DNA of 64,000 nucleotides. Source: an uncultured delta proteobacterium (lineage in GTDB: Bacteria; Desulfobacterota; Binatia; Binatales; Binataceae). Of this stretch, positions 26,844-46,724 are shown one piece after another. Below the pieces are notes generated by a model that saw nothing but the letters and a program-made list of their open reading frames with translations, did no database searches and was not told the origin of the DNA. Numbering within the stretch: the first letter of the stretch is position 1; the number at the start of each line of letters is the position of its first letter. Where the stretch lies: positions 256,001 to 320,000 of the forward strand of contig CAVRVY010000003.1 in assembly GCA_963724765.1 (NCBI GenBank). Direction: 5' to 3'. Both the position numbers and the translations under genes were made by a program.

Positions 26844-26920
26844 GGGGCTGTAGCTCAGTTTGGGAGAGCGCCTGAATGGCATTCAGGAGGTCGCGCGTTC
26901 GATCCGCGTCAGCTCCACCA
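26844..26920 (+). tRNA. tRNA-Ala (GGC)
   Basis: GGGGCTGTAGCTCAG...CCTGA-ATGGCAT-TCAGG anticodon arm, GTTCGATC T-loop, encoded CCA end. Confidence 0.96.
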
Positions 26921-26931
26921 ATAAAATCAAG
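26873..26931 (+). repeat. attL core: 59-bp direct repeat (tRNA-Ala 3' half + ATAAAATCAAG)
   Basis: Identical to 46666-46724. Confidence 0.95.
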
Positions 26932-26968
26932 CACTTAGATGCTTCGGGATTGTCGCGCGAACCGTGCG

Positions 26969-26987
26969 TGTAGGCGACATGTAGGCG
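26969..26987 (+). promoter_or_regulatory. putative integrase arm-type sites (TGTAGGCG x2, 11-bp period)
   Basis: Matching pair TGTAGGC(A/G) at 46530-46548 near the other end. Confidence 0.6.
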
Positions 26988-27115
26988 CACGCGCGATTTT
27001 GAGGCCCATTTCCGCGGCTATGCGCATAGGATTCTAGGGTGGACCTCCCCGGCTAGCTTGGCCGGCGCGTCCTGAGCCACCGCTGGATGCCCGCGCTCGG
27101 AGAAGCCACCGTTTT

Positions 27116-27523
27116 TTAATCGCGGCCGTATCTCCGGTTGCGCCAAATTGGCGCCGCACTATCCCGTGAGGCCGCTGAGCTCTTAGCATGCAGATACTCG
27201 TCGATGCCGCGCTCGGAAAACCGCAGGCAGCGCGATTTCAGCCGGTGCGTGAACGGATAGAAGTCCGCGTTGCGATAGAGTGTGTCGCGTGCGATCCCGA
27301 GCAGCACTGCCGCTTCGTCCGCGTGCAGCATCCGATCCGGTCCGCTTGGCATGCTGGCCAGCGCTCCCGGCTCCCCGGACAGCATGATGCGTCGCGCCTT
27401 CAGCGCGCCTCGAGCCATCTCCAACATAGCGATCAGGCGCCGCGTCGCATCGAGCGAAAGAGCGTTCACGCGCAGCGGATCCCGCGCGATGTCATCCAGG
27501 GTGATATTCTCGTTCTGGTCCAT
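27116..27523 (-). CDS. HTH_17/excisionase-like DNA-binding protein
   Basis: MLHADEAAVLLGIARDTLYR...LRFS winged-HTH pattern; GGAGGT RBS. Confidence 0.75.
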   Translation of the reverse strand: MDQNENITLDDIARDPLRVNALSLDATRRLIAMLEMARGALKARRIMLSGEPGALASMPSGPDRMLHADEAAVLLGIARDTLYRNADFYPFTHRLKSRCLRFSERGIDEYLHAKSSAASRDSAAPIWRNRRYGRD

Positions 27524-27578
27524 TCTCGCTTCACCTCCCTATTCGAGTCTCCTGCCGCGTTGCCTGCCGCGCAGCGCT

Positions 27579-28792
27579 CTACAGGCGCATCGGCATGATG
27601 ACCGCTTGGGGCGAGTCCGCCGCTCCCGCCGTGGTGATCACGCACGGGCTCGTCGGGTCCGCCAGCCGAAACACAAGCTCGTCGCCCAGCGTCGCGATCG
27701 CGCCCAGCAGGTAACTGGCGTTGAAGCCTGCCGCCATCTCGGCATTGCGCACGTCGCCTTTGGCCGCGATGCCTTCGCTCGCCTCGCCGCGCTCCGGGTC
27801 GGACGCGGAAACGGTCAGCCGACCGGATGCGAAGGCCAGCCGGACGCCGTGATAGCGAGCGCTGCTGAACGGCATGACCGCACCTATCGCAAGCCGCAGA
27901 GTATCGCGCCAGACGGTCAGCGCCGCGTCTTGCGCGGACGCCTTGGGAATCACGCCTCGATAGTCGGGAAACTCGCCTTCGACCGTGCGTCCCTTGTAGA
28001 GCGCGCCCGCCACATTGAACGAGATGACCGGACGCTCCGCAAGTCCGTCGCCGCTCCGCTCCGCGCCCGTGTCGAGTATCCGCAGCGCCATGCGAACGTC
28101 TCCAGCCGGGCGCGCGCGCAAGGCCGTGCGTAGCGCGACCAGTAGCTTGCGCGGAATGATGAACGGCGCAAACCGCTCCGTCGCCAATGGGGCTCAGTCA
28201 GTGCGAGCCTATGCCCATCGGTTGCGACCATACGGACGCGCTGATTGCCCGCGCGCTCGAACAACACGCCGCTCAGGTTGTAGCGCGCCTCATCGGGCGA
28301 GACGGCATAGAGCGTGGCGTCGATCATCTCCGCGAGCATCGCAGCCGGAAGTATCACGCGCAGCCGTGGGGCGCCCGTGGGAAAGTCGGCCGGGAAGCTT
28401 GCCGGGTCGAGTCCGACCAGCCGCGCGCTCGTACCGTTGACCGCAACGCGCACGTCCGTCGAAGCGCTCGCGCCGTCCGCGCCGTCTTTCGGCGGGTCGG
28501 ACGATTCGAGCGTGACGGTTTGCGCCGCGCCGCGCCCGCTCCCGGATGGCTGACTCCGCTTGAGCACCTCGAGCAAGGTCCGCGCATCGACCGTGGCGAC
28601 GCCAGCCGCGTGCGTCTGACATGGGATGCGGGTTGCGTAGGCCATCTCAAGGTCCGTCGCGCGGAGCATCAGGCAGCCGTTAGCTTCGAGCGCAACGTGG
28701 CCCAGGATCGGCACGGTCGCGCGCCGCTCGATTATGCGGCTTGCGCCCGCAAGCGCGCGCATCAAGGGTTTCGTCTCAACAGTGATTTTCAT
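27579..28792 (-). pseudogene. DNA polymerase III beta-clamp (DnaN) homolog split by a 1-nt frameshift near 28190
   Basis: N-half TVPILGHV, LRATDLE, YAVSPDEARYNLSGV, VATDGHRLA; C-half EGEFPDYRGVIP, GFNASYL, VIMPMRL in another frame. Confidence 0.85.
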
Positions 28793-29244
28793 GGACTCAC
28801 CCGCCGGGCCGCTGCTCGCTCGAGACGGATCACGTTACCTTCAACCTGAATCGCAACCGATCTTTCCTCGGCTGCTTGGCGCCAGGCCCTTTGCGCGAGT
28901 ATTCGCTGCGCGCGTTTCGGCAACCCTTCCGGATGCGCCTCGATCTTCGCCAGCAATGGCCATTCGATCTTGAGCGCCCGCTTATGCGTCATACCGAGCT
29001 CCAGTGCGATATGTTCCAGATCGAAATCGGTGGTGCGGGCCGTCAGGATGCGCCGTTGGCGCTCAGTCAGCTTCCAGCCACTATGCAGGACGGCCAGAGC
29101 TAACTGAGCGGCTTCACGGCACCCACTGCGCCAGGAATCTTCGCAGCTACAACAGATCGGCTCGCCATCGCCGTCTTCATACATCGGGCTGTCGCAGTCC
29201 GCCCCGGAGCACTGAGGACACGGGCAAAGATTGTGCTTTGGCAT
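28789..29244 (-). CDS. Cys-rich zinc-finger + sigma70 region-4-like HTH protein
   Basis: CxCxxC/CxxC clusters, LTERQRRILTAR...LEHIALELGM; GGAGGT RBS. Confidence 0.6.
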   Translation of the reverse strand: MPKHNLCPCPQCSGADCDSPMYEDGDGEPICCSCEDSWRSGCREAAQLALAVLHSGWKLTERQRRILTARTTDFDLEHIALELGMTHKRALKIEWPLLAKIEAHPEGLPKRAQRILAQRAWRQAAEERSVAIQVEGNVIRLERAAARRVSP

Positions 29245-29262
29245 CGACGTTACCTCCATCGG

Positions 29263-29670
29263 TTAGTTTGCGCTGGCTTGCAGCACGCGGGTTTCCAAAG
29301 ACGCCACTACGCCAGTCGCTATCCGACAGCGCCGCGCCGTCCGTCTCGCCGTGGTGCGCATCCGCAGAGTCAGAATCTCACGCTCCCGCCTCGACAGATC
29401 GATCGCGGTGGACCGCAGCGCTGCCCGCAGGCGCTCCACGATCTCGCAATGTTCGTCGCGGATTTCGTTACACTCGTCGCACCAATCCCCATAGCCCAGG
29501 AGCGCCACGTTCCCGCAGACCTCGCACTGCCCGCGTATCGCTTCCCAAATGTTCTCGCGGACGCGCCCGCCGTCTTGAGTCCGGCACTTCTGACACCGGC
29601 CTCGCTCAAGCGTCGCGTATACTTCACCGCAACTTGCGCAGACCCCGAAACTGGTAGGTGGTTTCCACAT
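29263..29670 (-). CDS. Cys-rich zinc-finger + sigma70 region-4-like protein (paralog)
   Basis: Four CxxC motifs, LSRREREILTLR; GGAGGC RBS; start at ATG 29670. Confidence 0.6.
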   Translation of the reverse strand: MWKPPTSFGVCASCGEVYATLERGRCQKCRTQDGGRVRENIWEAIRGQCEVCGNVALLGYGDWCDECNEIRDEHCEIVERLRAALRSTAIDLSRREREILTLRMRTTARRTARRCRIATGVVASLETRVLQASAN

Positions 29671-29697
29671 TGACGTTGCCTCCATGCAAAGTAATTT

Positions 29698-29741
29698 ACA
29701 CGCAACCAGCTTGTGTGTCAATACACAGGTAGCTTGTGTGT
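29698..29741. promoter_or_regulatory. tandem operator-like repeats in a divergent promoter
   Basis: AGCTTGTGTGT at 29708 and 29731, each forming an imperfect palindrome with an upstream ACAC half; AT-rich context between divergent genes. Confidence 0.55.
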
Positions 29742-29769
29742 TGAGACTGCTTGGAGTATCTGTGTACGC

Positions 29770-30024
29770 ATGGGGCGAAATGACAAAGCAGGCAAACCCG
29801 AAGTGCCCGAGGCCGTGCGCGATTACTTCAGCCGCATGGGACGTAAAGCGTGGGAAGGCAAGAGCGCGAAGGCAAAGAAGGCTCGCACCTCGCACGCGGC
29901 TAGCTCGCGCTGGGCGAGCATGACCGCAGAGGAGCGCTCGGCCGAGATGAAGCGCCGCGCCGCAGTGCGCAAGCGCAACAAGGCCAGGGTACGCAAGACG
30001 GACGCGCCGTCATCCGAATCATGA
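29770..30024 (+). CDS. small basic protein (G-K/R..RW..TAEER motif)
   Basis: 84 aa Lys/Arg-rich; stop is followed almost immediately by a palindrome copy. Confidence 0.6.
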   Translation: MGRNDKAGKPEVPEAVRDYFSRMGRKAWEGKSAKAKKARTSHAASSRWASMTAEERSAEMKRRAAVRKRNKARVRKTDAPSSES

Positions 30025-31049
30025 TCCTATGCGCATAGGATTCATCGCCGCGGCCTGTATATCATGGCCCTGACCCAGGGCCGCGCCGGCGCATCTTCCG
30101 AGCACCCCTTGCATACTGCCGCGCCCGGCGCTGTAGCGGCTTGGGGACAGCCATACGGCGAAGCTTGTAATTCAAACTCGTTTAGGGCGGGAATGGGATT
30201 TCGGGATGGGGCTGATGATTCAAACTCGTTGAGGGCTAAATAGCCGTTCTGCTGCCTCTGGCTATTCGAATGGGCATTGGAGGTGGGTTCGGGCGTCAGC
30301 GAGGTTCTGGGCGGGAGTTTTGCTCAGTGGCGGGCATTTCTGCGATGGTCGATAGGAGCGGGAAGCTAGCGGCCTGCGATTGTGGCACGTAGGACGTAGC
30401 CTCAACGGGTTTGTTCCGCGCCTGTGTGCGTCGGCGCGGGAGTATAGGCGTTCCCGTGCCAAATCCGGAGACCCCTGTCACTGTCCATTACGAATGCCGA
30501 TTCCCACGGCTAATCCTTCGCGTGGCTAGTGATAGAGCCTCCGGAGAGGGTTACTACCGCGCCGGCGCTTCCGGCGCCTCATATCCACTCGCCGCCGTTG
30601 CGCTGGAACCACGCTGAGCCGGCAGGACTCCTGAGACGGCAACTGAGTATTTTCCCTATGCGCATAGGAACACAAACCTGACGTACGAATGGGTCCTGCG
30701 GAACAGATGGCGTGTGTTTAAAAAGACCCGGCCGCCTTCGACCGGGTCTTCGAGGCTCTGTCTCCCCTCCACAAATCGCGTTCCGGGCAGCGATTGCTCA
30801 CGACACTTGTTGGACAGTGGCAGGGGGGTGCCCTTGTCCACCTTAGCGCCGGCTGTTCGCTGCTAGCCTCCTTGCGGAACGCGACCAGATACTAGACTTG
30901 GCCTTGGCGTCGTTCAAGGAATTTATTGCGACGCTGATCACGGTTTGTCCACAGGAACGACAGCGCGACACTTTGCGGCCTGCGCTCCGGGTCTCGCGCC
31001 GCCCTCAGCGACCATCGCTCGCTGATCGTCGCTCGCGTTATCTGAGGGA

Positions 31050-31337
31050 CTATTCTGTTTCGGCCTTCCGACTCCGCCGCCGATCGTGTTCACAGACGAT
31101 CGTTATACCGTTGGTGACCCCCTGTTCGTCCGTCACGCGGCCCTCTTTAGCTTCGTTTTCGGAGACCGATGTCATCATCTGCCACATGATCTGCTTGACG
31201 ACGAAGTACTGGCGCTCCCTTCTGGGGCGATCGAAACAAATCTTATCGCCGGGTCGGGGTAGGGTCGGAATCTCAAAATCCCGATCTTCGGTGGCTTCAC
31301 TTTCGCCTGCCGGTATAAGCGCCAACGTCACTTTCAT
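31050..31337 (-). CDS. hypothetical protein (95 aa)
   Basis: Strong GGGAGGGG RBS; LPRPGDKI beta-rich motif. Confidence 0.6.
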   Translation of the reverse strand: MKVTLALIPAGESEATEDRDFEIPTLPRPGDKICFDRPRRERQYFVVKQIMWQMMTSVSENEAKEGRVTDEQGVTNGITIVCEHDRRRSRKAETE

Positions 31338-31450
31338 CTTCGCTTTCCCTCCCCTCCCGTTTCTTCGCCCAGCGCGCCAGCGAAGCCTTTGCGGGCGGCC
31401 TCAGATCGCTGCTGGGGTGTCATACCCTCGGCGCGCGTGTCGCGCTTGGG

Positions 31451-31822
31451 CTAAGTGTTCAGGATCCGGTCCAACCGCCGGCTCAGCGCCAGAGCAAGTT
31501 CGTTCAGATGTTTGAGAGAAGCGAGCGCGCGATCGAAGAGGGCGTCGGCCGATGCTCGACCTTTGGCGATTGCTACGAGAGCGGCCCTGAGCTGCCGGTT
31601 GGTGTCGTCCGTGATTAACCCGAGATCTCGCGTGTGCGCGGCTATTTCCCAAACGAAAGGCGGCGTCGTCCTGATGACTTCCTGACAGCGCGCCACGAGT
31701 ACGGGGCAGGTTTCACCGAAGTAGCGCTGCATCTCCTCGACCAGAAGCTCTCGCTTACCCTCATTCCCCTTGTCCACGGCTCCCCCCGACCGACGGACGA
31801 TACTACACAGGGGGCCTGTCAT
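31451..31822 (-). CDS. hypothetical helical protein
   Basis: ORF with plausible composition; start uncertain. Confidence 0.45.
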   Translation of the reverse strand: MTGPLCSIVRRSGGAVDKGNEGKRELLVEEMQRYFGETCPVLVARCQEVIRTTPPFVWEIAAHTRDLGLITDDTNRQLRAALVAIAKGRASADALFDRALASLKHLNELALALSRRLDRILNT

Positions 31823-32263
31823 CCAGCGCCGCGCCGAATAAGGACTCTCCGCCCTCGACGGCGCTTCCGCTGAGCTTCAGCGGCCCTCTCGAACGGCACG
31901 GCCGGCGCCGAAGTGTGAGCTGCGTATCAGCCTATGCGCATAGGACGCCGCACAGTTGTGCTCGTGGTTTAAAAGACGCTTGGCCTTTGTAGGCCGAGAT
32001 CGTCTCGGCATGAGGCCTCGCCACGCTCGCCCTGGTCGGCTGGTATCTGCCGGAACACGTGCATGCGGGTTCGTGCTGGGTCTCGCGCTGAGCGAGCGCT
32101 CGCCATGAATGCAGCCGTCGTCATCGCCCTCGCGTTGGTCATCGCCGGCGCGATCTACATTCGACAGCGTTGGCGCCGGGCGCCGCAGGTCTATCGGGGC
32201 GATAATCGCGCTGAAAGCCAGCGAGTTACATTTGTCGACTGGGTTGCTAGGGTTCGCGACCGG

Positions 32264-32908
32264 CTAAGCTCTCTTTGTTCCCCACAGCAACCTAGAAAGC
32301 GCGCTCATCGCGACAGACCAACACGATTTGAAACTGCCGAGAAAAGCGGGCGGCAAGTGGGGGGAGCGCATGTGCTCACATATGCAGTTGCTGGAATCGG
32401 AATCGGTCGAGCGGCAGCCATTGGCGCGCACCGCAGCATAGGCGTCCTTCATCTTCGACCGGGTAAAGTTCTTCGGAAATCTATCTCGATTAGCAAGGGC
32501 GTTTGCAATCCGTCCTCTCTCAGGAATGGCCAAAGATATGTTCCAATGATTTTGCCTTGCCCAGTGGCAGGCAAAGCTATCTGCCGTCTGAACCTTCGCT
32601 ATGCCCTCTAGTTCGTCCAGAGTGAACGCGAGCAAACATAGACCCTCCACGCGGGTTCCACCCGTCCTGCACCAATTGAGCGCCGTGACAGCGCGAAGAA
32701 CGTCTACCGAACCCGTCACATATAAGAGACTCAAAACTCCTCCATCCTCTGAGAGTACATTTTTTTCGATCAGAGCCGCTCGACGCTCGGGAAGGTCTTC
32801 TCTAGCGCCGCAGCTAGTTGGTCGATCTACCTTCCGCACGTAGCAGGGAGGATCGATTCCTAGTTTTGTGCGGATGTCGAAATCGTCTTCTACGCTCACC
32901 GAAGACAA
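32264..32908 (-). CDS. putative ADP-ribosyltransferase-fold toxin (CmdT-like pattern)
   Basis: YVRK...VLSL.Y...AVTAL...T...HWNI...IA...FT..KMK spacing recalled from CmdT-like toxins; last gene of a lower-GC three-gene operon. Confidence 0.45.
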   Translation of the reverse strand: MSSVSVEDDFDIRTKLGIDPPCYVRKVDRPTSCGAREDLPERRAALIEKNVLSEDGGVLSLLYVTGSVDVLRAVTALNWCRTGGTRVEGLCLLAFTLDELEGIAKVQTADSFACHWARQNHWNISLAIPERGRIANALANRDRFPKNFTRSKMKDAYAAVRANGCRSTDSDSSNCICEHMRSPHLPPAFLGSFKSCWSVAMSALSRLLWGTKRA

Positions 32909-32917
32909 CTAGCGGGC

Positions 32918-33862
32918 TCAGGTTAGATCCGATGCCAACTCTTCGGCGAGCTCGCGAATGAGTTGCGATCGCTGCGGATCGTTCGCGACCCGCCTGAGGT
33001 CTTCCAGCGCGGCAGAATCGCCAACATCTCCCAGCGCCTGGACCGCAGCTTCTTCGAGAGCAATGAATCTCGATTCAAGAAAATACCTTGGAATTTCGTG
33101 ATCACCCGTTCGCCCAGCGGCCCTGATGAGCGCGTACCAATAGTCATCGTTGTTCCCATCCGGCGTGAACGTGGATAGGCGAGCTCGCGCGACGGCATGC
33201 ACCACATCACGGCCAAGGAGTGCCAAGATATCGATGGTGTCATCGAGCCGTCCCGAGCGATGCACACTGAGAAGTGACCGAATCGCTCGGTCTACATCCT
33301 CTATAGACGCCCCAGCGCGAGTAATAGCGTGAGTCGCTTCAAATTGCGCGCGCACCTTGTCCTGCCCAACCGCTACCCTTACCCGGTCAAGTGCAGCCTC
33401 GATACGCGAAAAGCCATGGGCCGATGCGGCCGCGAGCGACACTGCGCGCCGTGTTTTAGCAACCTGGTTCGGGTGCGCCTTGCATTCGATGATATAGATT
33501 TGGCCTGAATTTACTTTGAGTAGACAGTCCACATCAGCGTTCAGTGACTTGCCGGTCAAGTATGTGCCTTGGTCCACCATCACGGTCGATATCCAATCTA
33601 GAACGGGATACCGATGTGTTGGAGTGGCGATAAGGTGTTTCCCAAGAGACGCAGTGGTCGCAGAATCGGAGACGTAGATCATCTTGATCTCTTCCGGTTC
33701 CGGTTTGGCCAAGCCGACACCGCTTTGGACGGCGTACGACGAATAGCGAAAAGGGGGCAGCGTGCTACCCGCCGATTCCTGTGCGTTGAAAAAGACAGCG
33801 GGAGTTGTGGACCTGCCCTTTCTGAGATCGACATCCTTCAGGTTTTCAACGATTTGCGCCAC
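32918..33862 (-). CDS. hypothetical protein with C-terminal HEAT-like repeats
   Basis: EEAAVQALGDVGDSAALEDL..IRELAEE HEAT pattern. Confidence 0.6.
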   Translation of the reverse strand: MAQIVENLKDVDLRKGRSTTPAVFFNAQESAGSTLPPFRYSSYAVQSGVGLAKPEPEEIKMIYVSDSATTASLGKHLIATPTHRYPVLDWISTVMVDQGTYLTGKSLNADVDCLLKVNSGQIYIIECKAHPNQVAKTRRAVSLAAASAHGFSRIEAALDRVRVAVGQDKVRAQFEATHAITRAGASIEDVDRAIRSLLSVHRSGRLDDTIDILALLGRDVVHAVARARLSTFTPDGNNDDYWYALIRAAGRTGDHEIPRYFLESRFIALEEAAVQALGDVGDSAALEDLRRVANDPQRSQLIRELAEELASDLT

Positions 33863-34623
33863 TAGTGCTGCCTTCCGTTTCCCTCAAAAGCTCGTATGAC
33901 CTTGGAGAGGACCTCCTGAGCATCTTGCAAATCCTTGTCAGTGCTGTCCCGAAAAAGGGGGGTCAGATCAAACTGCTGCACTCCGGGTCCCGAAGGAACT
34001 ATTGGGTGATGCGCATTAATTCCGACGAAAATCATATCGGTACCGCGCACTGACGGTTCCACCGAAACATTCAGATCCCGCCGCCGCTCTGAAAGCGTAT
34101 AGCCGATTTTAGCTGATCGTTCCCCATGGCCCCCCTTGAGGAAGTCGAGCGGTGTCGCGTCAACGATCTGCGCCAAACGAGCTCCAACATTTCCGACACC
34201 GGCTTTGCGATGGAAGTTGAAATTTAAGCCATAGGCGGAAACAGGCGTATGAGCTAGGGCCTCGAAGACGGAGCTTGCGACATCACGGATACGGGGAAGG
34301 AAACTTTGATCATACGTCGAAATCGTCCAACTCTGCTCGAGGCACGTGATCCTTAATTTCCCTGCCGTAAACTGAGCAAACGTAGGGGTACATATGGTCA
34401 TCGTGTCCGTGATCGGCCTCAACCCTTGCTCTCGTTCGGGAATAGGCATGTCGACGGGCGCTTGTGCTTGCCCGCCAGCCAATCCAAAGGAAGCGAGTTC
34501 CTCGTCGGACAAGGCCCCGATCACTTTGTACCATGCAGGATGGTGAATCGCGGGGTTCATATTCCCCGCGACAACGATAAAGTACGCCTCATTTGCGGAC
34601 GCGAATGGGTCGGCTTCAGGCAT
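33862..34623 (-). CDS. conserved hypothetical protein, first gene of the candidate toxin operon
   Basis: IVVAGNMNPAI..PAW and HTPVSAYGLNF motifs; translationally coupled to the next gene. Confidence 0.65.
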   Translation of the reverse strand: MPEADPFASANEAYFIVVAGNMNPAIHHPAWYKVIGALSDEELASFGLAGGQAQAPVDMPIPEREQGLRPITDTMTICTPTFAQFTAGKLRITCLEQSWTISTYDQSFLPRIRDVASSVFEALAHTPVSAYGLNFNFHRKAGVGNVGARLAQIVDATPLDFLKGGHGERSAKIGYTLSERRRDLNVSVEPSVRGTDMIFVGINAHHPIVPSGPGVQQFDLTPLFRDSTDKDLQDAQEVLSKVIRAFEGNGRQH

Positions 34624-38800: not shown

Positions 38801-38971
38801 GGATGGACTCTGGCCTATCTTTCGCGCATGTGTCAAGTGATAGGCCGTGTATCGGATAGTCAATGTGGTATCTAGTACGATAGCGTTAATCAAGTGGCTT
38901 GACTGAGGTTGTCAGTTGCGGGGATCATCTTGGAGACCAGAGCCGCGCACAGCGGCACGGAGGGAAGCCAA

Positions 38972-39175: not shown

Positions 39176-39179
39176 CGGG

Positions 39180-40274
39180 TTGAACCCTGAAAATGGAAAG
39201 CCCGGCGGGCTAAACCGGGCTCAGAAGGAGAAACGAACTGTGATGGACACAAGCGTACTGAGTTTTCGGAATGAATGTCAAGAGTTGGAGCGGCGCCGAA
39301 CTGCCGATGAGCGTCCTAGCCGCGACCCCGAGCGCGTCGCGCGCAACCTGGCGCGCGCTTTCAATCCGTGGCGCACGTTTCGCCGCTACAGCATCGTGCC
39401 AAACTGCATAATGGAGCGAGATGACCTTTCGGACGGCGCCAAGCTCGTCTATGCGAGACTGATGCAGTTCGGCGGCAAAGGCGGAGATTGTCATCCCTCA
39501 TACGAAAGGCTCGCCAAGGCGGTAGGAAAGAAGCACCGCCATACGGCGATGCGAGCCGTCGAAGAACTCGAGAACAAGGATTTGCTCGTCGTGCTATCGC
39601 CCGAGCCGGGCAAGCGGAAGTCGGCCGGATTCGTCTTCGTCTGGCAGCCGTGGATGGACGCAGATGAGGACCGGGCAGAGGCGGTGACAGGTCGCAAGGT
39701 TGCGACTGGTGAGGTCGCAAGGTTGGGACTGGTGACAGGTCGCAAGATTGCGACCCTAAAAGAATCCTCTTCTGAAAAGACTCCCAGAAAAGAACTTACG
39801 TACGATCTGGAGTTCGAGAAGACATGGAATGCATACCCCAACAGATCGGGATCTAACCCTAAACCCAGAGCTTACCGAGCATGGTTGAAACAGGTCAGTA
39901 GGGTAGAGATCTCCGATCGCTACAAACGGATCGCGGAAATACATGCCGGCGTCGAACGCTACCGGGGCGTCTGCGACGACACCAACACGACCGGCACGCA
40001 GTACGTCATGCTGGCCGCTCGCTTTTTCGATGAAGAACAGTGGTGCGAGCCGTGGGACATCCCGGCGCGGAAGCGATGGGATGATGAGCCGGAAGTCGTG
40101 CCGCCGCCCTACCTGCCTAAAGAGCCGCCCGAGGCGGAGATGCACGAGAAGCATACGGCGCGGCACAAGGAATTCATGGAGCAACTCAACGCCGCCGATC
40201 GAACGAAGCTCGCATCGTATTTGCGCAGACAGAGCGAGGCTTCGATGAACGGAGCAGCCAGCGCAGCGGCATGA
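39180..40274 (+). CDS. phage-type replication initiator (N-terminal winged HTH)
   Basis: LSDGAKLVYARL..CHPSYERLA..AVEELE; C-terminal FEKTWNAYP..K..A..AW; internal iterons; start may be 39242. Confidence 0.75.
   Translation: MNPENGKPGGLNRAQKEKRTVMDTSVLSFRNECQELERRRTADERPSRDPERVARNLARAFNPWRTFRRYSIVPNCIMERDDLSDGAKLVYARLMQFGGKGGDCHPSYERLAKAVGKKHRHTAMRAVEELENKDLLVVLSPEPGKRKSAGFVFVWQPWMDADEDRAEAVTGRKVATGEVARLGLVTGRKIATLKESSSEKTPRKELTYDLEFEKTWNAYPNRSGSNPKPRAYRAWLKQVSRVEISDRYKRIAEIHAGVERYRGVCDDTNTTGTQYVMLAARFFDEEQWCEPWDIPARKRWDDEPEVVPPPYLPKEPPEAEMHEKHTARHKEFMEQLNAADRTKLASYLRRQSEASMNGAASAAA
39691..39754. repeat. three iteron-like palindromes GTCGCAA-NN-TTGCGAC inside rep, followed by an A-rich tract
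   Basis: Copies at 39691, 39714 (one mismatch), 39739. Confidence 0.75.
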
Positions 40275-40342
40275 AGGCGCGAACCTTATGCGCATAGGAA
40301 TGAAAGCCCAAGGTAAACAACCGACTTTTTCGGAGTAAAAGC

Positions 40343-40984
40343 ATGCACGTCGCAATCGCTCACTCACTGCTCGCCCACTCGTGGATCGCGGGGCTCCTGT
40401 TCCCGATTATTGGGCAATCACTCACGAGCGCTCTCTCGGGCACTAATTTGACGAGCCTCCTCACCACGTTGCTGACTGCGATGGCGGGCATAATTCCCGG
40501 CGCGACGCAGAATCAGGAGAACCTGCAGCAGCAGAGCAGTCAGCGGCAATTGTCCGCGAGCGATTTAGCGACCAACCCCAACACCTTCTCGTCGCAGTTG
40601 AGCAACTTGCTCGGCGTGACCGGGGCGAGCGCCGGACCAAACAGCACGGGCGCGAATGGCGCGGGCACGAATACGATTGCAGGGATGCTCCAGAAGCTCA
40701 TCAGCAGCTTCACCGGCAGCTCCAGCCAGAACTTGACGAACAACGTCTGGGAGCAGCTTCAACCGCAACTTGCATCTGCCGGACTTGGGCAGGCCCCGGG
40801 CGTGGCCAATGAAGAACTAGCGACCGCGTTGGCGCCGAATCAGATCCAAGAGCAGACCCTGGGCGCGGAGGAAGGGGCCGGCGCGCTTCAATCAGCGCTC
40901 CAGACCGAAGAGACGAACCTTCAGTTTCCTTTTCAAATTGGGAGCCAAGCGGCGAGTTCCTTCCCGAGCTTCGCGACGCTGTAG
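40343..40984 (+). CDS. Gly/Ser/Thr/Gln-rich protein, DNA-pilot/ejection-like
   Basis: Low-complexity composition with very few charged residues; directly upstream of the SLT protein. Confidence 0.5.
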   Translation: MHVAIAHSLLAHSWIAGLLFPIIGQSLTSALSGTNLTSLLTTLLTAMAGIIPGATQNQENLQQQSSQRQLSASDLATNPNTFSSQLSNLLGVTGASAGPNSTGANGAGTNTIAGMLQKLISSFTGSSSQNLTNNVWEQLQPQLASAGLGQAPGVANEELATALAPNQIQEQTLGAEEGAGALQSALQTEETNLQFPFQIGSQAASSFPSFATL

Positions 40985-40992
40985 GAGGGTGA

Positions 40993-43404
40993 GTGTCTAC
41001 GCAGCCGACATTCGACGACCTCATCCAGGCAATGATCCAAAGCGAGAGCAGCGGTCGCCCAGATGCCCGCGGTGCTAAGGGCGAGCTTGGTCTTCTCCAA
41101 ATCATGCCGAAGACCGCCAAGGATTACGGCATCACCGATCCCCGCATGCTGCTTGACCCGAAGATAAACAAGGCCGTCGGCTCGCGTATCCTCATTGACC
41201 TGCTGAAGAAGTATCGCGGCGACGTGCACAAGGCGCTCGAGGCGTACAACGCCGGCCGCGGGCGAGTCGATAAGGGTCGCGTGCCGGCGTCGAGCATCGC
41301 TTACGCGGACAAGGTAATCGGACGCGCGGGCGCTCGACCTTCGGCTGCGGAGACGGCAACTCGCGCAACCGTCGGATCGCAGACGCCGCGATTTTCGGCG
41401 AGCATGATGGAGAGCGCGCCGCCTTCTCCGGGCGCGGCTGGCGAGAGTCTGCGCGAGCGTTTGCTCCGAGTTTTCGCTCCTGCATCGGCCTCGGCTGCTG
41501 AAACGTCGAACGTCAAAGAGATCCCGAGCGTCGGACCTCCCGCTGATGTCGATACACGGATCGCGGCGAAGCTAGCGGACCGCAGCGTCAGCCCGTCCGA
41601 CATCGACGCCCGAATCGAAGCGAAGCTAAGGGGCGGGACTTCGAGCGCCGCGCCGGCGAAGACTGCACGAGGCGTGCCGATTCCGCCCGGCGCAAAGGTC
41701 GGCGGCGCCCGTACGGGCACCGTGCCAATTCCGCCGGGGGCTAGCATCGGCGCACCCGTTACCGGCGCTGGCCCAACCGGAAAGCCGCTGCCGCTTGCCG
41801 TCCGTGCTGCCGACTGGCTACCGATGGCCGGTCAGATCGGCGGCGAATTGGCCGGCGGCGCTCTTGGCATTGAGAGCGGACCGGGCGACATCGCGGCCAT
41901 TGGAGCGGGCGGTGGTTTGGGCGAAGGCTTGGGCGCGGAGGCGGACACTGGCGTGCGCGCGCTCTATGGCCAGCCCTACAAGAGCCAACCGCAGCTCGCC
42001 AAGGAAGCGGGAGAAGCGGCCGGCATCAGCGGCGGCGGCGCGTTGATTACGCCCGCGCTCAAGATCATCGCTCCATCTAAACTCAAGGCTGCCATTGAAG
42101 CCTCGCGCGCCTACAAGTCGGCGGGAGCGGCGGCCGAGGACGTGACGACGAAGCTACGCAACCTGCTCGGGATGGACGCCGATACGGCCCTGCAGACGAC
42201 GCTTTCGCCGCAAGCCAAGGCCGACCTTGCGGCAGCATATGCGGGCGCCCGCCGCGCCGGTTTCGACCAGATCAGCAAAGTCTACCAAGACGTGCTCGGC
42301 CCCTACTTTCATCGCATGACCCCAAACGCATCGGCGAAGGCTTTTAGCGACTTCGCGAACAAACACGGCGCGCAATCCGTCAGGCTGCTCGACGGCGGAA
42401 TCGACTTCACCCGGCCGACCGTCCGCATGATCCAGCAGTTCAGGAGCAATGTCGCAAAAGCGATGCGTCAGGCCAACATGGACCGTGACCGCGCGCTGAT
42501 CGGCGACCTCTACAAGCTCGAGCACACCGCGGACTCCGACATCAAGGCAGTCCTTCCCGCTGACCGCGCGCTCCGCTACGACCGCATCAACGCCGCGCGC
42601 GCCGACTTCAGCTCACAGATGCCCGGTGCCAAACTGCGCGCGATGTGGAACGCGCCGAGCTCCAGCAAGGCGATCGAGGAAATCCTCAAAAGCGACCCAC
42701 GCCAGATCGCTACGCTGCTCCGCAACGTCGACCAGCTACCGGCCCGCGATCGCGTTAAGGCGCTGACCAGTCTTAAAAACGCGACCGGCGCATGGATCTA
42801 TCGCCAGGCTGCGAACATCCCGAAGTCCGAAGGCCAGGCGGCGGCTCTCGAAGCGTTCGGCAAGGCGGTTCACGACGTACCCGACGCGGCCTTCGCTCGA
42901 CTCTACGGCCCCGGCACCAAGGAGCGGATGGAGGCCGCGACCGATGCGACGCTTCGATTCCACGAGAAGATGTTGCGCTATCCAAACCTCGCGATGGCCG
43001 TGGCTGCGGAAGTAAGGGCGAGACCGATGCCGTGGATCGTGAAGCACGCTCACTATGCAGCGTTCTACGCGCTCTATCCGCTGATTCGCGGGAACCCGGA
43101 GGAAGCCGCACTCGCGCTCGCGATTGGCTTCACGCCAATCGGATTGCACGCGATGCTCGACAATCCCGCCATGCAGGCGCTCTACATCCGCGCGCTCACG
43201 GCCAAGGATCCGAAAGCGATCGCGGACGGGATACGCACGCTGTTGACCGCGCTGGCGGCCCAGGAGCTCCGCGAGCCAATGCCCAAGACGCCACCGCCAG
43301 CACCCCCCGGAGCGCCGCCACCAGGAGCAACGCCAGCCGGAATGCCAGCCAGGATGCCGGCGCCGGGCGCGCGACCGTCAGGGATGCCGGGAATGCTGCC
43401 ATGA
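40993..43404 (+). CDS. large protein with an N-terminal lytic transglycosylase (SLT) domain
   Basis: MIQSESSG, GLLQIMP, AYNAG SLT motifs, then Gly/Ala-rich and helical regions; AGGAGG RBS. Confidence 0.85.
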   Translation: MSTQPTFDDLIQAMIQSESSGRPDARGAKGELGLLQIMPKTAKDYGITDPRMLLDPKINKAVGSRILIDLLKKYRGDVHKALEAYNAGRGRVDKGRVPASSIAYADKVIGRAGARPSAAETATRATVGSQTPRFSASMMESAPPSPGAAGESLRERLLRVFAPASASAAETSNVKEIPSVGPPADVDTRIAAKLADRSVSPSDIDARIEAKLRGGTSSAAPAKTARGVPIPPGAKVGGARTGTVPIPPGASIGAPVTGAGPTGKPLPLAVRAADWLPMAGQIGGELAGGALGIESGPGDIAAIGAGGGLGEGLGAEADTGVRALYGQPYKSQPQLAKEAGEAAGISGGGALITPALKIIAPSKLKAAIEASRAYKSAGAAAEDVTTKLRNLLGMDADTALQTTLSPQAKADLAAAYAGARRAGFDQISKVYQDVLGPYFHRMTPNASAKAFSDFANKHGAQSVRLLDGGIDFTRPTVRMIQQFRSNVAKAMRQANMDRDRALIGDLYKLEHTADSDIKAVLPADRALRYDRINAARADFSSQMPGAKLRAMWNAPSSSKAIEEILKSDPRQIATLLRNVDQLPARDRVKALTSLKNATGAWIYRQAANIPKSEGQAAALEAFGKAVHDVPDAAFARLYGPGTKERMEAATDATLRFHEKMLRYPNLAMAVAAEVRARPMPWIVKHAHYAAFYALYPLIRGNPEEAALALAIGFTPIGLHAMLDNPAMQALYIRALTAKDPKAIADGIRTLLTALAAQELREPMPKTPPPAPPGAPPPGATPAGMPARMPAPGARPSGMPGMLP

Positions 43405-43627
43405 TTCCGCGTGACGGAAATGCATCCTATGCGCATAGCGGCCATCTTCCGGGGCTGGACGGCGATGGAGACGTGCCGGCGTGCGCGCAGACACTCAAGG
43501 CGCGCGAACTCCCTTCGTCGATGCCCGCGAGACCATGCGATGCCGAACAAAACTCGGCCTCTGGCGCGTCGCGCCGCGGCGCGGCACCACAGGTAGCGGC
43601 GAAACCGGCAGAGGGAGGCTTTTGCTG

Positions 43628-44035
43628 ATGTACGCCGATGAACTCCGTTCGATGTTCTGCGAGGTTGCCGGAATTTCTAGCTTGGAACTCGCGACCGAGC
43701 AGTGGGCCTCTCGACTCGGGATAATCTTCTCCGAAATCGGCCAGCCGCTCGCCAAGGTGATTCAACGTCGACGCGACCAAGGGCGCAGCAAAGGGCCAAG
43801 CATCACCTTCGTTCGGGCCTGGGTTGCGAAGCTGTGCAAGCGCCTCGAGACCGACGCCGACGAACGCGAGCGGATCGCGCAACTCAAGACTGCTCTCGCT
43901 GAGAGGGTTTATGAGATTCAGACGGCGAAGGCCGCCGGGGTTACGAAGTCGCGCGTTGCAGTCGCGGCTCAAGTGCGCGCGCGCGTCTGTCGTGCGGCGC
44001 ATGAGTCCAGCGCGGTCACCTTGAGCGGTAGCTAA
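43628..44035 (+). CDS. hypothetical protein
   Basis: GGGAGG RBS before ATG 43628. Confidence 0.55.
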   Translation: MYADELRSMFCEVAGISSLELATEQWASRLGIIFSEIGQPLAKVIQRRRDQGRSKGPSITFVRAWVAKLCKRLETDADERERIAQLKTALAERVYEIQTAKAAGVTKSRVAVAAQVRARVCRAAHESSAVTLSGS

Positions 44036-44096
44036 CGAATGGGCGCCCGTGCGCGTGCTGGCCGCACAACATCAAACTTCGACGGAGGTCGAGACA

Positions 44097-44234
44097 ATGA
44101 GACGGAAAGATGAGAGTCCGATGGAAGAGGCCGAAAAGAAAGTGGTCGAGCGCACCAGCGGGCGGCACTCGCGCCGGCATCACGCACGCGGCGTCAAGCG
44201 GGTCAGGCGCCGTAAGGTCGCTCGATCCAGCTAG
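44097..44234 (+). CDS. 45-aa Arg/His-rich protein
   Basis: GGAGG RBS; RHSRRHHARGVKRVRRRK. Confidence 0.5.
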   Translation: MRRKDESPMEEAEKKVVERTSGRHSRRHHARGVKRVRRRKVARSS

Positions 44235-44244
44235 CCCAAGTTCC

Positions 44245-44517
44245 ATGAGCCTACCAAACCCGCCCCTGCCGGCAGCGGCCCAGCTCGCACGCTGTCGTTG
44301 GAGCGCAGAGTCTTCCGACCAGGACGCGCGCAAGGCAGCGGCGCAGGCGCTCGCAAATCGCCGCTGGGGAAAGTCGACGGCGGAGGAACGTGCGGCGTTC
44401 GGGCTGAAGCTCAGACAGGCGCGGGCCAAACACCGACGCGCCCCAACAGCCGCGCAAGTATCCGGGCTCCTGACCTCGCGGCGCGGGAAACCCAGCGCGG
44501 CGCCCTCGGGCGAGTAG
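44245..44517 (+). CDS. small basic protein (RW..STAEER motif)
   Basis: Shares the RW-x3-TAEER motif with 29770-30024. Confidence 0.55.
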   Translation: MSLPNPPLPAAAQLARCRWSAESSDQDARKAAAQALANRRWGKSTAEERAAFGLKLRQARAKHRRAPTAAQVSGLLTSRRGKPSAAPSGE

Positions 44518-44546
44518 CTGAGTTCCTATGCGCATAGGAATCTGAT

Positions 44547-45026
44547 GTGAACAGGATCGTTCTCTTTGGCCGACTTGGGCGTAACCCGGATCTGCGGGTC
44601 GCGCACCCGGTTTGCCGATTCTCGCTGGCGGTCCACGAGCCCTACACCGACAGCGGCACGGGCGAGAGGATCGAGCGCGTCACGTGGTTCCAAATCGTGG
44701 CGTGGGACCGGCTTTCTGAGATCGCGTCGCAGTATTTGCACAAGGGCGACCAGGTTCTGGTCGAGGGCCGAGTTCAGCTTCGCGAGTTCAAAGGCAGAGA
44801 CGGAACCAAGCGCGCGATGCTCCAGGTGATCGCTCACCGGCTCGAGTTCGGCGCCAAGTCACGGCGCACCGATGCGGACAACCCCGCGCCGGCCGACGAC
44901 CACGATCGCGACGGCGAAGACGCGCCGATAGATTTCACCGAGGACTTAGAGGGCTTCACCGATGACCTAGCGGCCGATGGTGCGGAAGACTTGACAGCGC
45001 TCGACGACGACAGCTTCCCGGTCTGA
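44547..45026 (+). CDS. ssb: single-stranded DNA-binding protein
   Basis: NRIVLFGRLGRNPDLR, YLHKGDQVLVEGR, acidic tail ending DDDSFPV. Confidence 0.92.
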   Translation: MNRIVLFGRLGRNPDLRVAHPVCRFSLAVHEPYTDSGTGERIERVTWFQIVAWDRLSEIASQYLHKGDQVLVEGRVQLREFKGRDGTKRAMLQVIAHRLEFGAKSRRTDADNPAPADDHDRDGEDAPIDFTEDLEGFTDDLAADGAEDLTALDDDSFPV

Positions 45027-45050
45027 AGTCAGGAATGGCCGCCACGAGCC

Positions 45051-45338
45051 TCAGTGCTGGTAGGGGAGTTGGTTTGACCCCGTATTAACGCTGTAGGCAT
45101 TCAAGCCTTGCAGGATGGCTGAACAAGACGACGGATCGTCAGGGTGGGCATCCACGCATTTTCGATAATCCGCGAGCAGCGCGTTTTGCGCCGAGGCGGA
45201 TCGATTCACTTCACAGTTGTTGACGTCGCCGGCGGTAACTGCGACCCAGCGGCACGGATCGTCGGGCGTCAGACCGGCCATGCAACCCGAAATGAGCAAG
45301 CCCATAAGCGCGAGCGCGGCAGAGTAGCGAAGTTTCAT
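45051..45338 (-). CDS. small lipoprotein coupled to the integrase
   Basis: MKLRYSAALALMGLLISGC lipobox; ATGA overlap with the integrase stop; 4 further Cys. Confidence 0.7.
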   Translation of the reverse strand: MKLRYSAALALMGLLISGCMAGLTPDDPCRWVAVTAGDVNNCEVNRSASAQNALLADYRKCVDAHPDDPSSCSAILQGLNAYSVNTGSNQLPYQH

Positions 45339-46528
45339 CGCCCTTGCTCCAAAAGCCTGCCGTCTTCGACATGCTCCGGTCGGGCGGATTGCTCCGTGCC
45401 GGCCAGCATCAGCGCGGCGTTCCTCTCGAGCGCCTCGCGCACAGGGTCCAATTGCAGTCGTGCATATACTGCGGTGCTGACGGAATTGGAATGATTCAGC
45501 GCGCGTCCGATGAGCGGCAGGCTGTAGCCCTGTGCGGCAAGCCACGACCCGAGCGTCCTGCGCAGGTCGTGAACGCGCACATCGGGTACACCAGCGCGCC
45601 CGCGGATGCGCTGCCAGGCGCTTGCGACCTCGACCAGATGGCCCGTGGCGCCGCGGCTTGGGAATAGCCACTCGCTCTCACCGTGGCTCGGCAGCGTGCG
45701 AAGCATCTCAGCGGCCGGCGTCGGCAGCGGTAGCAGATGCGATCGCCCAGCCTTGGTTATCGGCAGCCGCAGCGTCCGCTGCTCCAGGTCGACGTCCGCC
45801 CAGCGCGCCGCCAGCATCTCAGTCTTGCGCGTCCCAAGCATCAGGCTCAGCGGAAAGTACGCACGCCAACGCCAGTCCGGCTCAGCGGCAAGCGCGTTGT
45901 TGACCCGGCGCAGCTCATCAGGCGATAGAAAGCGCTCGCGCGGTTCCTCGCGGAATAGCTTGATGCGTGCGGCCGGATTCTCGCCGGCATGCAGCTTCAA
46001 ATCATGGGCGATGTTGAACATCGTGCGCAGCAGAACCGTGGTGCGGTTGCTCTCGTACAGGCCACGCTCGCGCCGGATGACCTGTTGCATGGTCACGAGC
46101 TCATCGCGCGGAATGTCGCTCAGTCGGCGGGTTCCAAACCGCGGCACGAGATGCGCGTTGATTCGGCGTTCGTCCTCGCGCCAGGACTTCTTGTGCGGCT
46201 TCGCGTGCCTCTCCAGATACTTGTCCGCCAGCACCGTGAAGGTCGGCTCGTTGTGCTCGTTGTGCCGCGTTTCAGCCGGGTCTTTGCCCTCGGCGACAGC
46301 GGCCTTTATGGCGAGAACCTTACGACGCGCCGCAAGAACACTCAGCGCAGGGAACGGCCCGATCGTCACGCGGCGCATGCGACCTCTCACCCGCCCTTCC
46401 CACACGAAGGCCTTGGCGCCACCGGCGGTTATCCGCAGTGCGAAGCCCTTGAAGTCATCATCGCGGATGAACGCCTGTCCTGACTCCGGTGCTCTCGCTC
46501 GCTCAGCCACTAGCTTGGTGATTTTCAT
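45335..46528 (-). CDS. tyrosine recombinase/integrase with N-terminal arm-binding domain
   Basis: GFALRIT.GGAKAF arm domain; R (GTRKTE), HDLRR, LNH, VY catalytic residues; adjacent to attR. Confidence 0.96.
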   Translation of the reverse strand: MKITKLVAERARAPESGQAFIRDDDFKGFALRITAGGAKAFVWEGRVRGRMRRVTIGPFPALSVLAARRKVLAIKAAVAEGKDPAETRHNEHNEPTFTVLADKYLERHAKPHKKSWREDERRINAHLVPRFGTRRLSDIPRDELVTMQQVIRRERGLYESNRTTVLLRTMFNIAHDLKLHAGENPAARIKLFREEPRERFLSPDELRRVNNALAAEPDWRWRAYFPLSLMLGTRKTEMLAARWADVDLEQRTLRLPITKAGRSHLLPLPTPAAEMLRTLPSHGESEWLFPSRGATGHLVEVASAWQRIRGRAGVPDVRVHDLRRTLGSWLAAQGYSLPLIGRALNHSNSVSTAVYARLQLDPVREALERNAALMLAGTEQSARPEHVEDGRLLEQGR

Positions 46529-46665
46529 TTGTAGGCATAGTGTAGGCGATATGCACAGTTGAAGCCAGTAGATGAGGGTACACAATCAGAGCGAAATACT
46601 ATCGAAGCGATTAGTAAATCGTAGGCTATCGGACGTAGTGAGAAACTATCAGAGTATTCAGATTG

Positions 46666-46724
46666 TGAATGGCATTCAGGAGGTCGCGCGTTCGATCCGC
46701 GTCAGCTCCACCAATAAAATCAAG
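46666..46724 (+). repeat. attR core: 59-bp duplicate of the tRNA-Ala 3' half
   Basis: Identical to 26873-26931. Confidence 0.95.

Follow-up and report, generated by a model that had tools for sequence, protein, structure and literature searches.

The 64,000-nucleotide stretch analyzed here (hereafter the window), positions 256,001–320,000 of the forward strand of contig CAVRVY010000003.1 (GenBank assembly GCA_963724765.1, an uncultured delta proteobacterium of the family Binataceae), was found to contain an integrated element of 19,852 bp, both of its terminal repeats counted. The element combines a phage-type replication module with an 803-aa protein that bears a lytic transglycosylase domain and, remotely, resembles the DNA-transfer protein gp16 of phage P22, and one 16-bp palindrome recurs ten times between its genes; no capsid, terminase or conjugation gene was recognized. 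Its gene content suggests, with somewhat less than even confidence, that it represents a rare, undescribed family of phage-derived, helper-dependent integrative elements which supply their own DNA-entry protein. Such elements would most likely spread as satellites in the virions of a helper tailed phage, a behavior suggested by their genes.

The element is bounded by a perfect 59-bp direct repeat with copies at 26873–26931 (attL) and 46666–46724 (attR), a spacing of 19,793 bp. The 23-nt core of this repeat occurs exactly twice in the window, with 0.00 occurrences expected. The attL copy covers the 3′ 48 nt of a tRNA-Ala(GGC) gene on the plus strand (26844–26920), which was identified by ARAGORN and matched the Rfam tRNA model at 59.7 bits. 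A repeat overlapping the 3′ end of a tRNA gene is the usual mark of integrase-mediated insertion, and the element is inserted in the 3′ end of this gene by a tyrosine integrase. The integrase gene (45338–46585, minus strand) encodes a protein with a P4-type arm-binding domain (Arm-DNA-bind_3, 6e-13; phrog_1, 1.4e-56) and is intact, with the Phage_integrase match (2.2e-24) running across profile positions 2–169 of 172. An initial annotation made from the sequence alone had described intact att repeats, an intact integrase and a size of about 19.8 kb, all of which hold. The G+C content falls from 0.64–0.70 in the left flank to 0.555–0.62 across 29–41 kb. The left flank carries chromosomal NAD kinase and RecN genes, and the right flank contains small unknown open reading frames (ORFs), P-II, a sigma-54 activator fragment, an IS630-type transposase and the kdp operon. 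Within the window, neither flank has a phage gene next to the element and, as both are made up of ordinary chromosomal genes, the element is not part of a larger prophage at this locus.

All 83 ORFs of at least 75 aa from the six frames were scanned with Pfam (E ≤ 0.01) and PHROGs (E ≤ 0.001), and 31 candidate ORFs were additionally scanned with NCBIfam and PADLOC. Family matches were obtained for 10 of the 83 ORFs with Pfam and for eight with PHROGs. None of the 83 matched a capsid, portal, large terminase, tail tube or sheath, or holin family, nor did any match a relaxase, coupling protein or VirB4/type IV secretion family. The NCBIfam scan likewise returned no capsid, terminase or conjugation family among its 31 ORFs, in agreement with the initial annotation, which had noted the lack of such genes. 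Two exceptions concern labels. The AlpA-like ORF described below weakly matches phrog_57 "terminase small subunit" (2.8e-5) over its helix-turn-helix (HTH) part only, its excisionase match being stronger (1.9e-11), and the transglycosylase domain (SLT) of the 803-aa protein matches PHROGs labeled as tail, lysis or internal virion protein, which are the sole "structural" labels obtained. The only ORFs longer than 314 aa are those of the integrase, the 803-aa protein and the replication initiator (364 aa); no other is large enough to encode a known portal or large terminase. Walker A matches were confined to a 314-aa cargo ORF and a doubtful 135-aa ORF (44110–44514), with none in the core genes. 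By megablast, the DNA of the whole element matched none of 50,697 phage and 72,556 plasmid records, and promoter and terminator scans of the element gave no excess over shuffled sequences.

Regulation and replication functions are grouped near the middle of the element. An AlpA-like HTH_17 regulator or excisionase (38909–39172, plus strand; HTH_17, 2.5e-10; phrog_66, 1.9e-11) is encoded directly upstream of rep (39180–40271, plus strand), and both face a gene for a 152-aa protein on the minus strand (38345–38803), which gives the divergent gene/alpA-rep layout reported initially. Twelve relatives of the 152-aa protein were found, all of them unnamed, and it has no phage or plasmid match; its position is that of the master repressor in phage-inducible chromosomal islands (PICIs). 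The 364-aa Rep is a replication initiator of the phage lambda-O type (HTH_36, 2e-12; phrog_270 replication initiation, 2.8e-30), with further matches to other replication-initiator and DnaD-like PHROGs. By tblastn it matched 154 phage records, those listed being annotated "replication initiation O-like," vs. 10 plasmid records, with identities of 24–38% and no match spanning 80% of the protein; no primase or helicase domain was found in it by Pfam or PHROGs. Three tandem repeats of ~24 bp inside rep (39683–39754; TRF period 23, 3.0 copies, score 116; repeat family D8) form a putative iteron origin. Location of the origin within the initiator gene is the lambda-O arrangement. A second candidate excisionase (Xis) is a 135-aa ORF adjoining attL (27119–27523, minus strand), with weak matches to Pfam HTH_17 (4.4e-4, below the cut-off) and phrog_66 (1.9e-4).

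A single-strand DNA-binding protein (SSB) is encoded at 44547–45023 on the plus strand (SSB, 4.6e-27; TIGR00621, 7.3e-30), as had been proposed. A DNA polymerase III beta-clamp homolog (27582–28792, minus strand; phrog_947) was proposed as well, and here the DnaN homology stood up and the implied integrity of the gene did not. The Pfam DNA_pol3_beta domains are divided between two overlapping frames near 28190, with the N and central domains on one ORF (27953–28792, minus strand; DnaN profile TIGR00663 positions 1–181) and the C domain on the other (27582–28187, minus strand; positions 187–367). The frame changes near 28185–28195, beside a CCCC run. As read, the clamp gene is not intact: it has recently become a pseudogene, or the homopolymer was misread in sequencing. 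The element carries, accordingly, a phage-type theta replicon together with an SSB gene and a possibly dead clamp gene.

The case for a DNA-entry function centers on the 803-aa protein (40993–43401, plus strand), in which an N-terminal SLT lytic transglycosylase domain is followed by an Ala/Gly/Pro-rich linker and an all-alpha C-terminal domain. The SLT domain (PF01464) occupies residues 9–94 (8.8e-20), so that the SLT protein named in the initial annotation is present. Residues E18, S19, G33-L34-Q36 and A84-Y85-N86-G88 are invariant in six sequences; we take E18-S19 to be the catalytic Glu-Ser pair and the other two groups to be the GLxQ/GLLQ and AYNAG motifs of SLT domains. The family is small, with six proteins recovered by a word-indexed search of 5.8 billion clusters and 27 representatives (E ≤ 0.001) by a full HMMER scan of 1.84 billion in which the C-terminal 544 aa served as the query. 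An N-terminal SLT was present in 17 of the 21 relatives scanned (six close relatives or short fragments among the 27 being left out), and it is therefore this two-part architecture that defines the family. None of 23 family members has a signal-peptide-like hydrophobic stretch at its N-terminus. A wall-cutting enzyme with no export signal must reach the periplasm by another route, and internal virion proteins that begin with a transglycosylase are known to do so by delivery from the virion. The same placement is seen in phrog_342, "internal virion protein with endolysin domain," in which the SLT part lies at profile positions 31–190 of 1235. A short conserved motif just before the SLT domain (TLEIP/LEIPG, or more loosely TLEVPS/VLDLPS) was observed in nine of 23 relatives (P0007, P0016–P0020, P0022, P0023, and P0025) and is absent from the 803-aa protein and its close relatives; a role in processing or targeting is possible.

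The C-terminal part leans toward viral proteins. Its three nearest clusters in the ESM Atlas are 100% viral (0.95, 0.95, and 0.94; 172–181 shared features), and the nearest named family is PF26808, Phage_P22_gp16 (0.91, 158 shared features). When a profile of 19 family sequences was compared by hhalign with the proteins of P22, gp16, taken as a single sequence, was the best of 45 (probability 33%, P 4.5e-4), the next being gp8 at 6.7%. Against a gp16 profile built from nine homologs of P22-like, APSE, Proteus and Vibrio phages the probability rose to 80.3% (P 1.4e-5, 146 columns), with residues 467–627 of the 803-aa protein paired with residues 334–498 of gp16. In the controls, the 803-aa family scored 0.13% against P22 gp20 and an unrelated family scored 0.26% against the gp16 profile. 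Phage records label the gp16 homologs "DNA transfer protein" or "injection protein." An AlphaFold2 (AF2) model placed the all-alpha region 430–760 at pLDDT 70–85, and with this model Foldseek returned 13 BFVD matches at E ≤ 0.001, of which 12 belong to tailed phages; the TM-scores of the matches were only 0.07–0.18, so that they carry little weight. The protein is probably an SLT domain fused to a gp16-like DNA-transfer domain. The "ejection-like" label given initially to this region thus receives moderate support for the 803-aa protein (from the Atlas and from the hhalign score of 80% with controls below 1%) and none for its 213-aa neighbor, which showed no likeness to P22 gp20 or gp7.

The second distinctive feature is a dispersed repeat, the full consensus of which is a perfect 16-bp palindrome, TCCTATGCGCATAGGA, often extended by A/T on each side. 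Its 12-mer CTATGCGCATAG occurs in nine exact copies, where 0.00 were expected and none of 100 shuffles contained as many, and the 10 copies of TATGCGCATA in the window all fall between 27019 and 44527. Written as (T)CCTATGCGCATAGG(A), the ten copies (27017..44538) lie at 27017, 30026, 30655, 31931, 36018, 36557, 38300, 40285, 43426 and 44525. All ten are intergenic under the gene model used here, in which about 80% of the interior is coding (P about 1e-7 for random placement), and they are found at divergent, convergent and co-directional junctions, including those between rep and the 213-aa gene, between the 803-aa and 135-aa genes, and between the 135-aa gene and ssb. The dispersed palindrome noted in the initial annotation is therefore real and, within the window, confined to the element. 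Since it is perfect and loop-less, a dimeric DNA-binding protein is expected to recognize it, and the palindrome is most likely a global operator. Candidate binders are the 135-aa protein, the 152-aa protein in the repressor position, a 109-aa basic protein, AlpA and two zinc-ribbon/HTH proteins. The GTG start of ssb follows 7 nt after the right arm (AGGA) of the last copy (44524–44549), which places this arm at the position expected of a ribosome-binding site; occupancy of this copy, or a hairpin formed by it, could gate SSB translation. A dif/Xer reading of the palindrome was dropped, as the 28-bp two-arm form is lacking.

Comparators were sought with one genome per species, and 80 loci were kept. 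Seventy nine of these share the SLT domain only; a single locus, L001, matches beyond it. L001 lies in a distant metagenome-assembled genome labeled uncultured delta proteobacterium, in which genes carry frameshifts of the kind seen in long-read data. It contains nine syntenic homologs of the element core in the same order, at 35–77% identity: the membrane protein (44%), the 144-aa (36–50%), 109-aa (64%) and 152-aa proteins (62–64%), AlpA (35%), the 213-aa (56%), 803-aa (42–47%) and 135-aa proteins (59–62%), and SSB (77%). The conserved core forms two clusters, one on the plus strand (the low-complexity 213-aa protein, the 803-aa SLT/gp16-like protein, the small 135-aa DNA-binding protein and SSB) and one on the minus strand (three small genes and the 152-aa gene). 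The integrase of L001 is only 28% identical and lies beside a tRNA-Lys gene, a protein with Replicase (PF03090), PriCT_1 and HTH domains replaces the lambda-O-like Rep, and the cargo genes of the element have no counterpart there. That integration and replication modules were swapped and the core was kept points to a maintained mobile-element family, not a chance deletion. PHROGs matched only SSB, the xis-like protein and two integrase pieces among 26 ORFs of L001. Genes with DUF3800 and EVE domains were observed in its left stretch of 51–54% G+C, along with the Replicase+PriCT_1 protein (221–2091 and 7266–8450). L001 also has five exact copies of the palindrome and one copy with a single mismatch (0.48 expected), with copies at the matching 144|109, rep|213-homolog and 803|135 junctions and a degenerate copy before ssb. 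The palindrome has stayed intact over a period in which the proteins diverged to about 50% identity, and it is therefore considered functional. No attL of L001 was found in the 15 kb to the left of its tRNA gene, which implies that this element is longer than its visible part and that a head module further left is possible.

Read as a satellite, the element could work as follows. Upon induction, or upon infection by a helper, AlpA and Int would excise it, and Rep would then fire the iteron origin with parts of the host replisome. The helper, probably a podovirus with P22-type ejection proteins, would package the element DNA, and the SLT/gp16-like protein would travel in the particle and breach the wall and membrane of the cell infected next. 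Present at every operon junction, the palindrome would serve as the operator of one element-encoded dimeric DNA-binding protein, by which the whole element is switched together. A bolder version, in which the element typifies a new satellite class that has no capsid-remodeling or packaging genes, loads its own delivery module (the SLT-gp16 fusion and a partner) into helper particles so as to control cell entry, and uses one parS-like operator, is doubtful at present.

Known satellites hijack their helpers at capsid assembly and packaging. In a published scheme, PICIs are given as core components an integrase, a regulator (alpA, merR or stl homolog), a primase-replicase, a capsid-morphogenesis gene and a small terminase, with tail and holin genes forbidden and a median size of 9.5 kb (PMC10085698). 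Like them, the element lacks tail and lysis genes and has its integrase at one end, boundaries formed by a tRNA gene and att repeats, cargo genes, a rep-linked iteron origin, and an AlpA-type regulator that precedes the replication gene and is faced by a divergent one. It differs in being about twice the median PICI size, in lacking capsid-morphogenesis and small-terminase genes, in having a lambda-O-like initiator in place of a primase-replicase, and in carrying a gp16-like ejection protein, an SSB and a clamp homolog. Of the PICI components, then, the integrase (phrog_1, 1.4e-56) and the regulator (HTH_17, 2.5e-10) are present and Rep is a functional analog only of the primase-replicase. No capsid-morphogenesis gene was found in the 83 ORFs by Pfam or PHROGs (SatelliteFinder's own profiles not being among those used), and the only trace of a small terminase is the weak phrog_57 match on the HTH of the AlpA-like protein (2.8e-5). 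The element would reach at most the "Type C" level of that scheme, a set which is excluded there for ambiguity and flagged as a possible source of new satellite families (PMC10085698). The int and alpA genes of P4-like satellites are present, and Pfam and PHROGs showed no psu-delta-sid operon, epsilon or alpha primase beside them, dedicated profiles not having been run. The major capsid, portal, head-tail connectors and large terminase that define capsid-forming PICIs (cfPICIs) and temperate tailed phages were matched by none of the 83 ORFs, and the relaxase, coupling protein and type IV secretion genes of integrative and conjugative or mobilizable elements (ICEs and IMEs) were matched by no Pfam or NCBIfam family. 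Judged by the defining genes in its sequence, the element is not P4-like, nor is it a cfPICI, a complete prophage, an ICE or an IME.

Two further comparisons bear on particle-borne transfer. The 803-aa protein shares with P22 gp16-type proteins the remote profile similarity described above, and with phrog_342 and T7 gp16-type internal virion proteins an N-terminal SLT that lacks a signal peptide and precedes a long helical region. Unlike P22 gp16, it has no PF26808 or phage tblastn match, it is encoded on an element without a head or tail gene, and its upstream partner does not resemble gp20 or gp7. VEIMEs and other marine satellite candidates (PMC9618062) are, like this element, integrative, free of major capsid genes and presumed riders in helper capsids; VEIMEs are, however, defined by their presence in particles, whereas the present element is known from its genes alone. 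The main text of that paper contains neither "transglycosylase" nor "single-stranded DNA-binding" (PMC9618062).

Several results weigh against a helper-dependent element with its own entry protein. A small terminase, capsid-size or packaging-redirection gene was not found among the 83 ORFs, and a TerS identity for the 135-aa core protein was ruled out by its predicted fold, which is like that of DnaA domain IV. The C-terminal similarity of the 803-aa protein was not reproduced by other searches: PF26808 gave no match at E ≤ 0.01 to the protein or any of 21 relatives, PHROGs matched only the SLT part of the relatives, except in four of 20, where weak tape-measure matches fell outside it, and tblastn of the C-terminal part against the 50,697 phage records gave none even at E ≤ 1 (with the full protein, phage and plasmid records matched the SLT domain only). 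The AF2 model of the whole protein, made from a six-sequence alignment, was poor (pLDDT 48, pTM 0.32). The 213-aa family scored a probability of <1% against P22 gp20 and gp7 by hhalign with a two-sequence profile. Both SLT and SSB genes are also frequent on conjugative plasmids; of 477 plasmid records that match SLT, 210 are typed as conjugative. Lastly, the clamp homolog is frameshifted, and L001 is the sole comparator locus, its left end lying outside the 10-kb flank.

The last two points also fit a defective prophage remnant, in which internal deletion stripped a small podovirus-like temperate phage of its head, tail, packaging and lysis genes, left it with att sites, int, replication genes and ejection genes, and made it immobile. 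Such a deletion would spare both att copies and int. Ejection proteins like gp16 are otherwise encoded by complete phages; the homologs of gp16 retrieved here came from phage genomes of 33–50 kb. However, L001 keeps the gene order without structural genes at 35–77% identity and with a different int, tRNA and Rep, which indicates long-term maintenance, and the palindrome network stands at matching junctions in both elements. The repeats are moreover perfect over 59 bp, the integrase match is full-length, and core proteins (the C-terminal 544 aa of the 803-aa protein, a 183-aa ORF and a 184-aa ORF) had no tblastn match in the 50,697 phage records. A remnant is for these reasons unlikely. The initial annotation had allowed that homologous elements might prove to be full prophages of which this one is a deletion remnant; the visible part of L001, which holds the same core without structural genes, speaks against this, its left end being out of view.

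The palindrome bears more directly on an integrative plasmid-like or mobilizable element, which would replicate episomally once excised, be maintained or silenced via parS-like centromere sites to which a host protein or an unrecognized ParB-type protein binds, and move by conjugative mobilization or not at all, the SLT protein and SSB serving DNA transfer or establishment as on plasmids. The KorB/OB sites of IncP plasmids form a global operator network. With such networks and with Bsr parS sites the element shares the use of one perfect palindrome at many sites of a small replicon; it differs in having no recognizable ParB, KorB or ParA and in having its sites at every operon junction and not clustered beside parAB (PMC5450999, PMC7022226). 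The parS of Burkholderia cenocepacia chromosome 2 is listed as gTTTATGCGCATAAAc in a table of PMC7022226; the central 10 bp of the palindrome are those of this site, and the outer three bases on each side differ. According to PMC5450999, a Bsr parS site is a palindrome of 16 bp that has CG at its center and a 6-bp core made up of 2C, 2G, 1A, and 1T. TCCTATGCGCATAGGA fits this description with its central CG and core TGCGCA, and agrees only in part with the "T-rich 5′ end" given there. The plasmid-type Replicase+PriCT_1 gene of L001 and the frequency of SLT matches on conjugative plasmids favor a plasmid-like nature as well. Against these stand the outer bases of the palindrome, the match to parS being one that may be due to chance, as a 10-bp palindrome carries only 5 bp of information. 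Pfam found no ParA or ParB family on the element, which makes the likeness to parS either a coincidence or the use of a host protein, and Walker A motifs occur only in the 314-aa cargo ORF and the doubtful ORF 44110–44514. Relaxase, coupling protein and secretion genes were not found, Rep is of phage type, the 803-aa C-terminal domain leans to viral proteins, and core proteins (its C-terminal 544 aa and the 183-aa ORF) had no tblastn match in 72,556 plasmid records. We regard a plasmid-like element as quite unlikely. The proposal in the initial annotation of "an undescribed satellite or integrative-plasmid class" is sustained in part: the shared core in L001 argues against a random deletion remnant, and the parS-like form of the palindrome, a point beyond that annotation, adds to its plasmid alternative.

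A complete virus of an unknown kind, with capsid and packaging proteins among the small unrecognized core genes, is highly improbable: the 188-aa membrane, 144-, 109-, 152-, and 213-aa core proteins belong to no known family and the family is found mostly in metagenomic collections, yet the core genes have no NTPase motif, no core ORF is big enough for a known portal or packaging ATPase, and the 152-aa and 135-aa proteins look helical (confirmed by AF2 for the latter only), unlike jelly-roll or HK97-fold coat proteins. An inovirus was ruled out, as neither an assembly ATPase nor a rolling-circle Rep was found by Pfam or PHROGs.

A helper-dependent element supplying its own ejection protein would, if confirmed, add DNA entry to the steps of satellite-helper interaction and provide a handle on gp16-type proteins outside complete phages. 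A full-text literature search, which did not cover subscription journals, found no paper on a satellite encoding an ejection protein, internal virion protein or lytic transglycosylase. In addition, the family provides a small-scale example in which a single palindromic site, kept across elements diverged to about 50% protein identity, apparently governs an entire mobile element. Should it be only a decayed prophage, the finding would be of local interest.

Among the smaller core genes, the minus-strand cluster encodes a 188-aa membrane protein with three hydrophobic segments by hydropathy (35001–35564), a 144-aa helical protein (35546–35977) and the 109-aa basic protein (36136–36462). On the plus strand, the 213-aa protein (40343–40981) is rich in Q, S, G and N, is longer in L001 and has no family and no PDB match. 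The 135-aa core protein (43628–44032, plus strand) has 11 relatives of 122–152 aa and a predicted DNA-binding fold like DnaA domain IV; the best Foldseek matches to its AF2 model (pLDDT 75) were DNA-bound DnaA domain IV (TM 0.63–0.67, at E > 1), and many small phage "DnaA C-terminal" proteins were also returned.

The genes without a counterpart in L001 include a block for proteins of 253, 314 and 214 aa (32267–34623, minus strand), which is the lowest-G+C part of the element (0.555–0.58) and has no match at the corresponding place in L001. The 253-aa protein gave an ESM Atlas lead to bacterial "TIGR04255 family" clusters (0.94), which NCBIfam did not confirm, and the 314-aa protein has C-terminal HEAT repeats, a D...ExK-like motif and a Walker-like GTYLTGKS. 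A search of six proteins against solved structures by sequence gave nothing useful, the only matches being of HEAT-repeat designs to the 314-aa protein. The block is possibly defense cargo; it has no PADLOC match, and PADLOC on the 31 ORFs returned only two weak and irrelevant matches. As the two largest unknown ORFs are cargo, they are not hidden capsid genes. Envelope-directed cargo was also observed, namely a 235-aa protein, Cys-rich and with a signal-like N-terminus, and a lipoprotein-like protein of 127 aa (36904–38229, plus strand; translations, with no family), and a small lipoprotein-like ORF downstream of int (45054–45341, minus strand), read as the inner part of ORF 45054–45671; none of these has a counterpart in L001.

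Next to the clamp homolog, a 156-aa Cys-rich protein (28792–29259, minus strand) and a 139-aa zinc-ribbon protein of similar build (29266–29682, minus strand; weak zinc-ribbon families, E 0.005–0.15) each show CxxC zinc-ribbon motifs followed by an HTH like sigma-70 region 4 (Pfam Sigma70_r4, E 0.043 at best, on the former). They recall the zinc-finger late-gene activators of P2 and P4, although no such family was matched. A 123-aa ORF (31454–31822, minus strand; third-position G+C 0.70) had no match in Pfam, PHROGs or NCBIfam. Between two palindrome copies, about 600 bp (30044–30650) are without a convincing ORF and hold a 26-nt direct repeat (30163–30188 and 30211–30236, 85% identical). No structured RNA was indicated there by folding z-scores (−0.08 and −0.92) or by Rfam, and the region could be a cis site, e.g., for packaging or as a second origin region.

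To the right of the element, the G+C content of the window is just 54–60% between 49 and 64 kb. The sigma-54 activator ORF in this part (50926–53289) begins at position 65 of the 168 in the AAA-domain profile and is thus N-terminally truncated, and the IS630/DDE_3 transposase gene lies 540 bp downstream of it. The KdpC ORF (59848–60867, plus strand; 340 aa) contains two stretches matching the 182-position KdpC profile and, at about twice the length of the Pfam profile, may represent a duplication or fusion.

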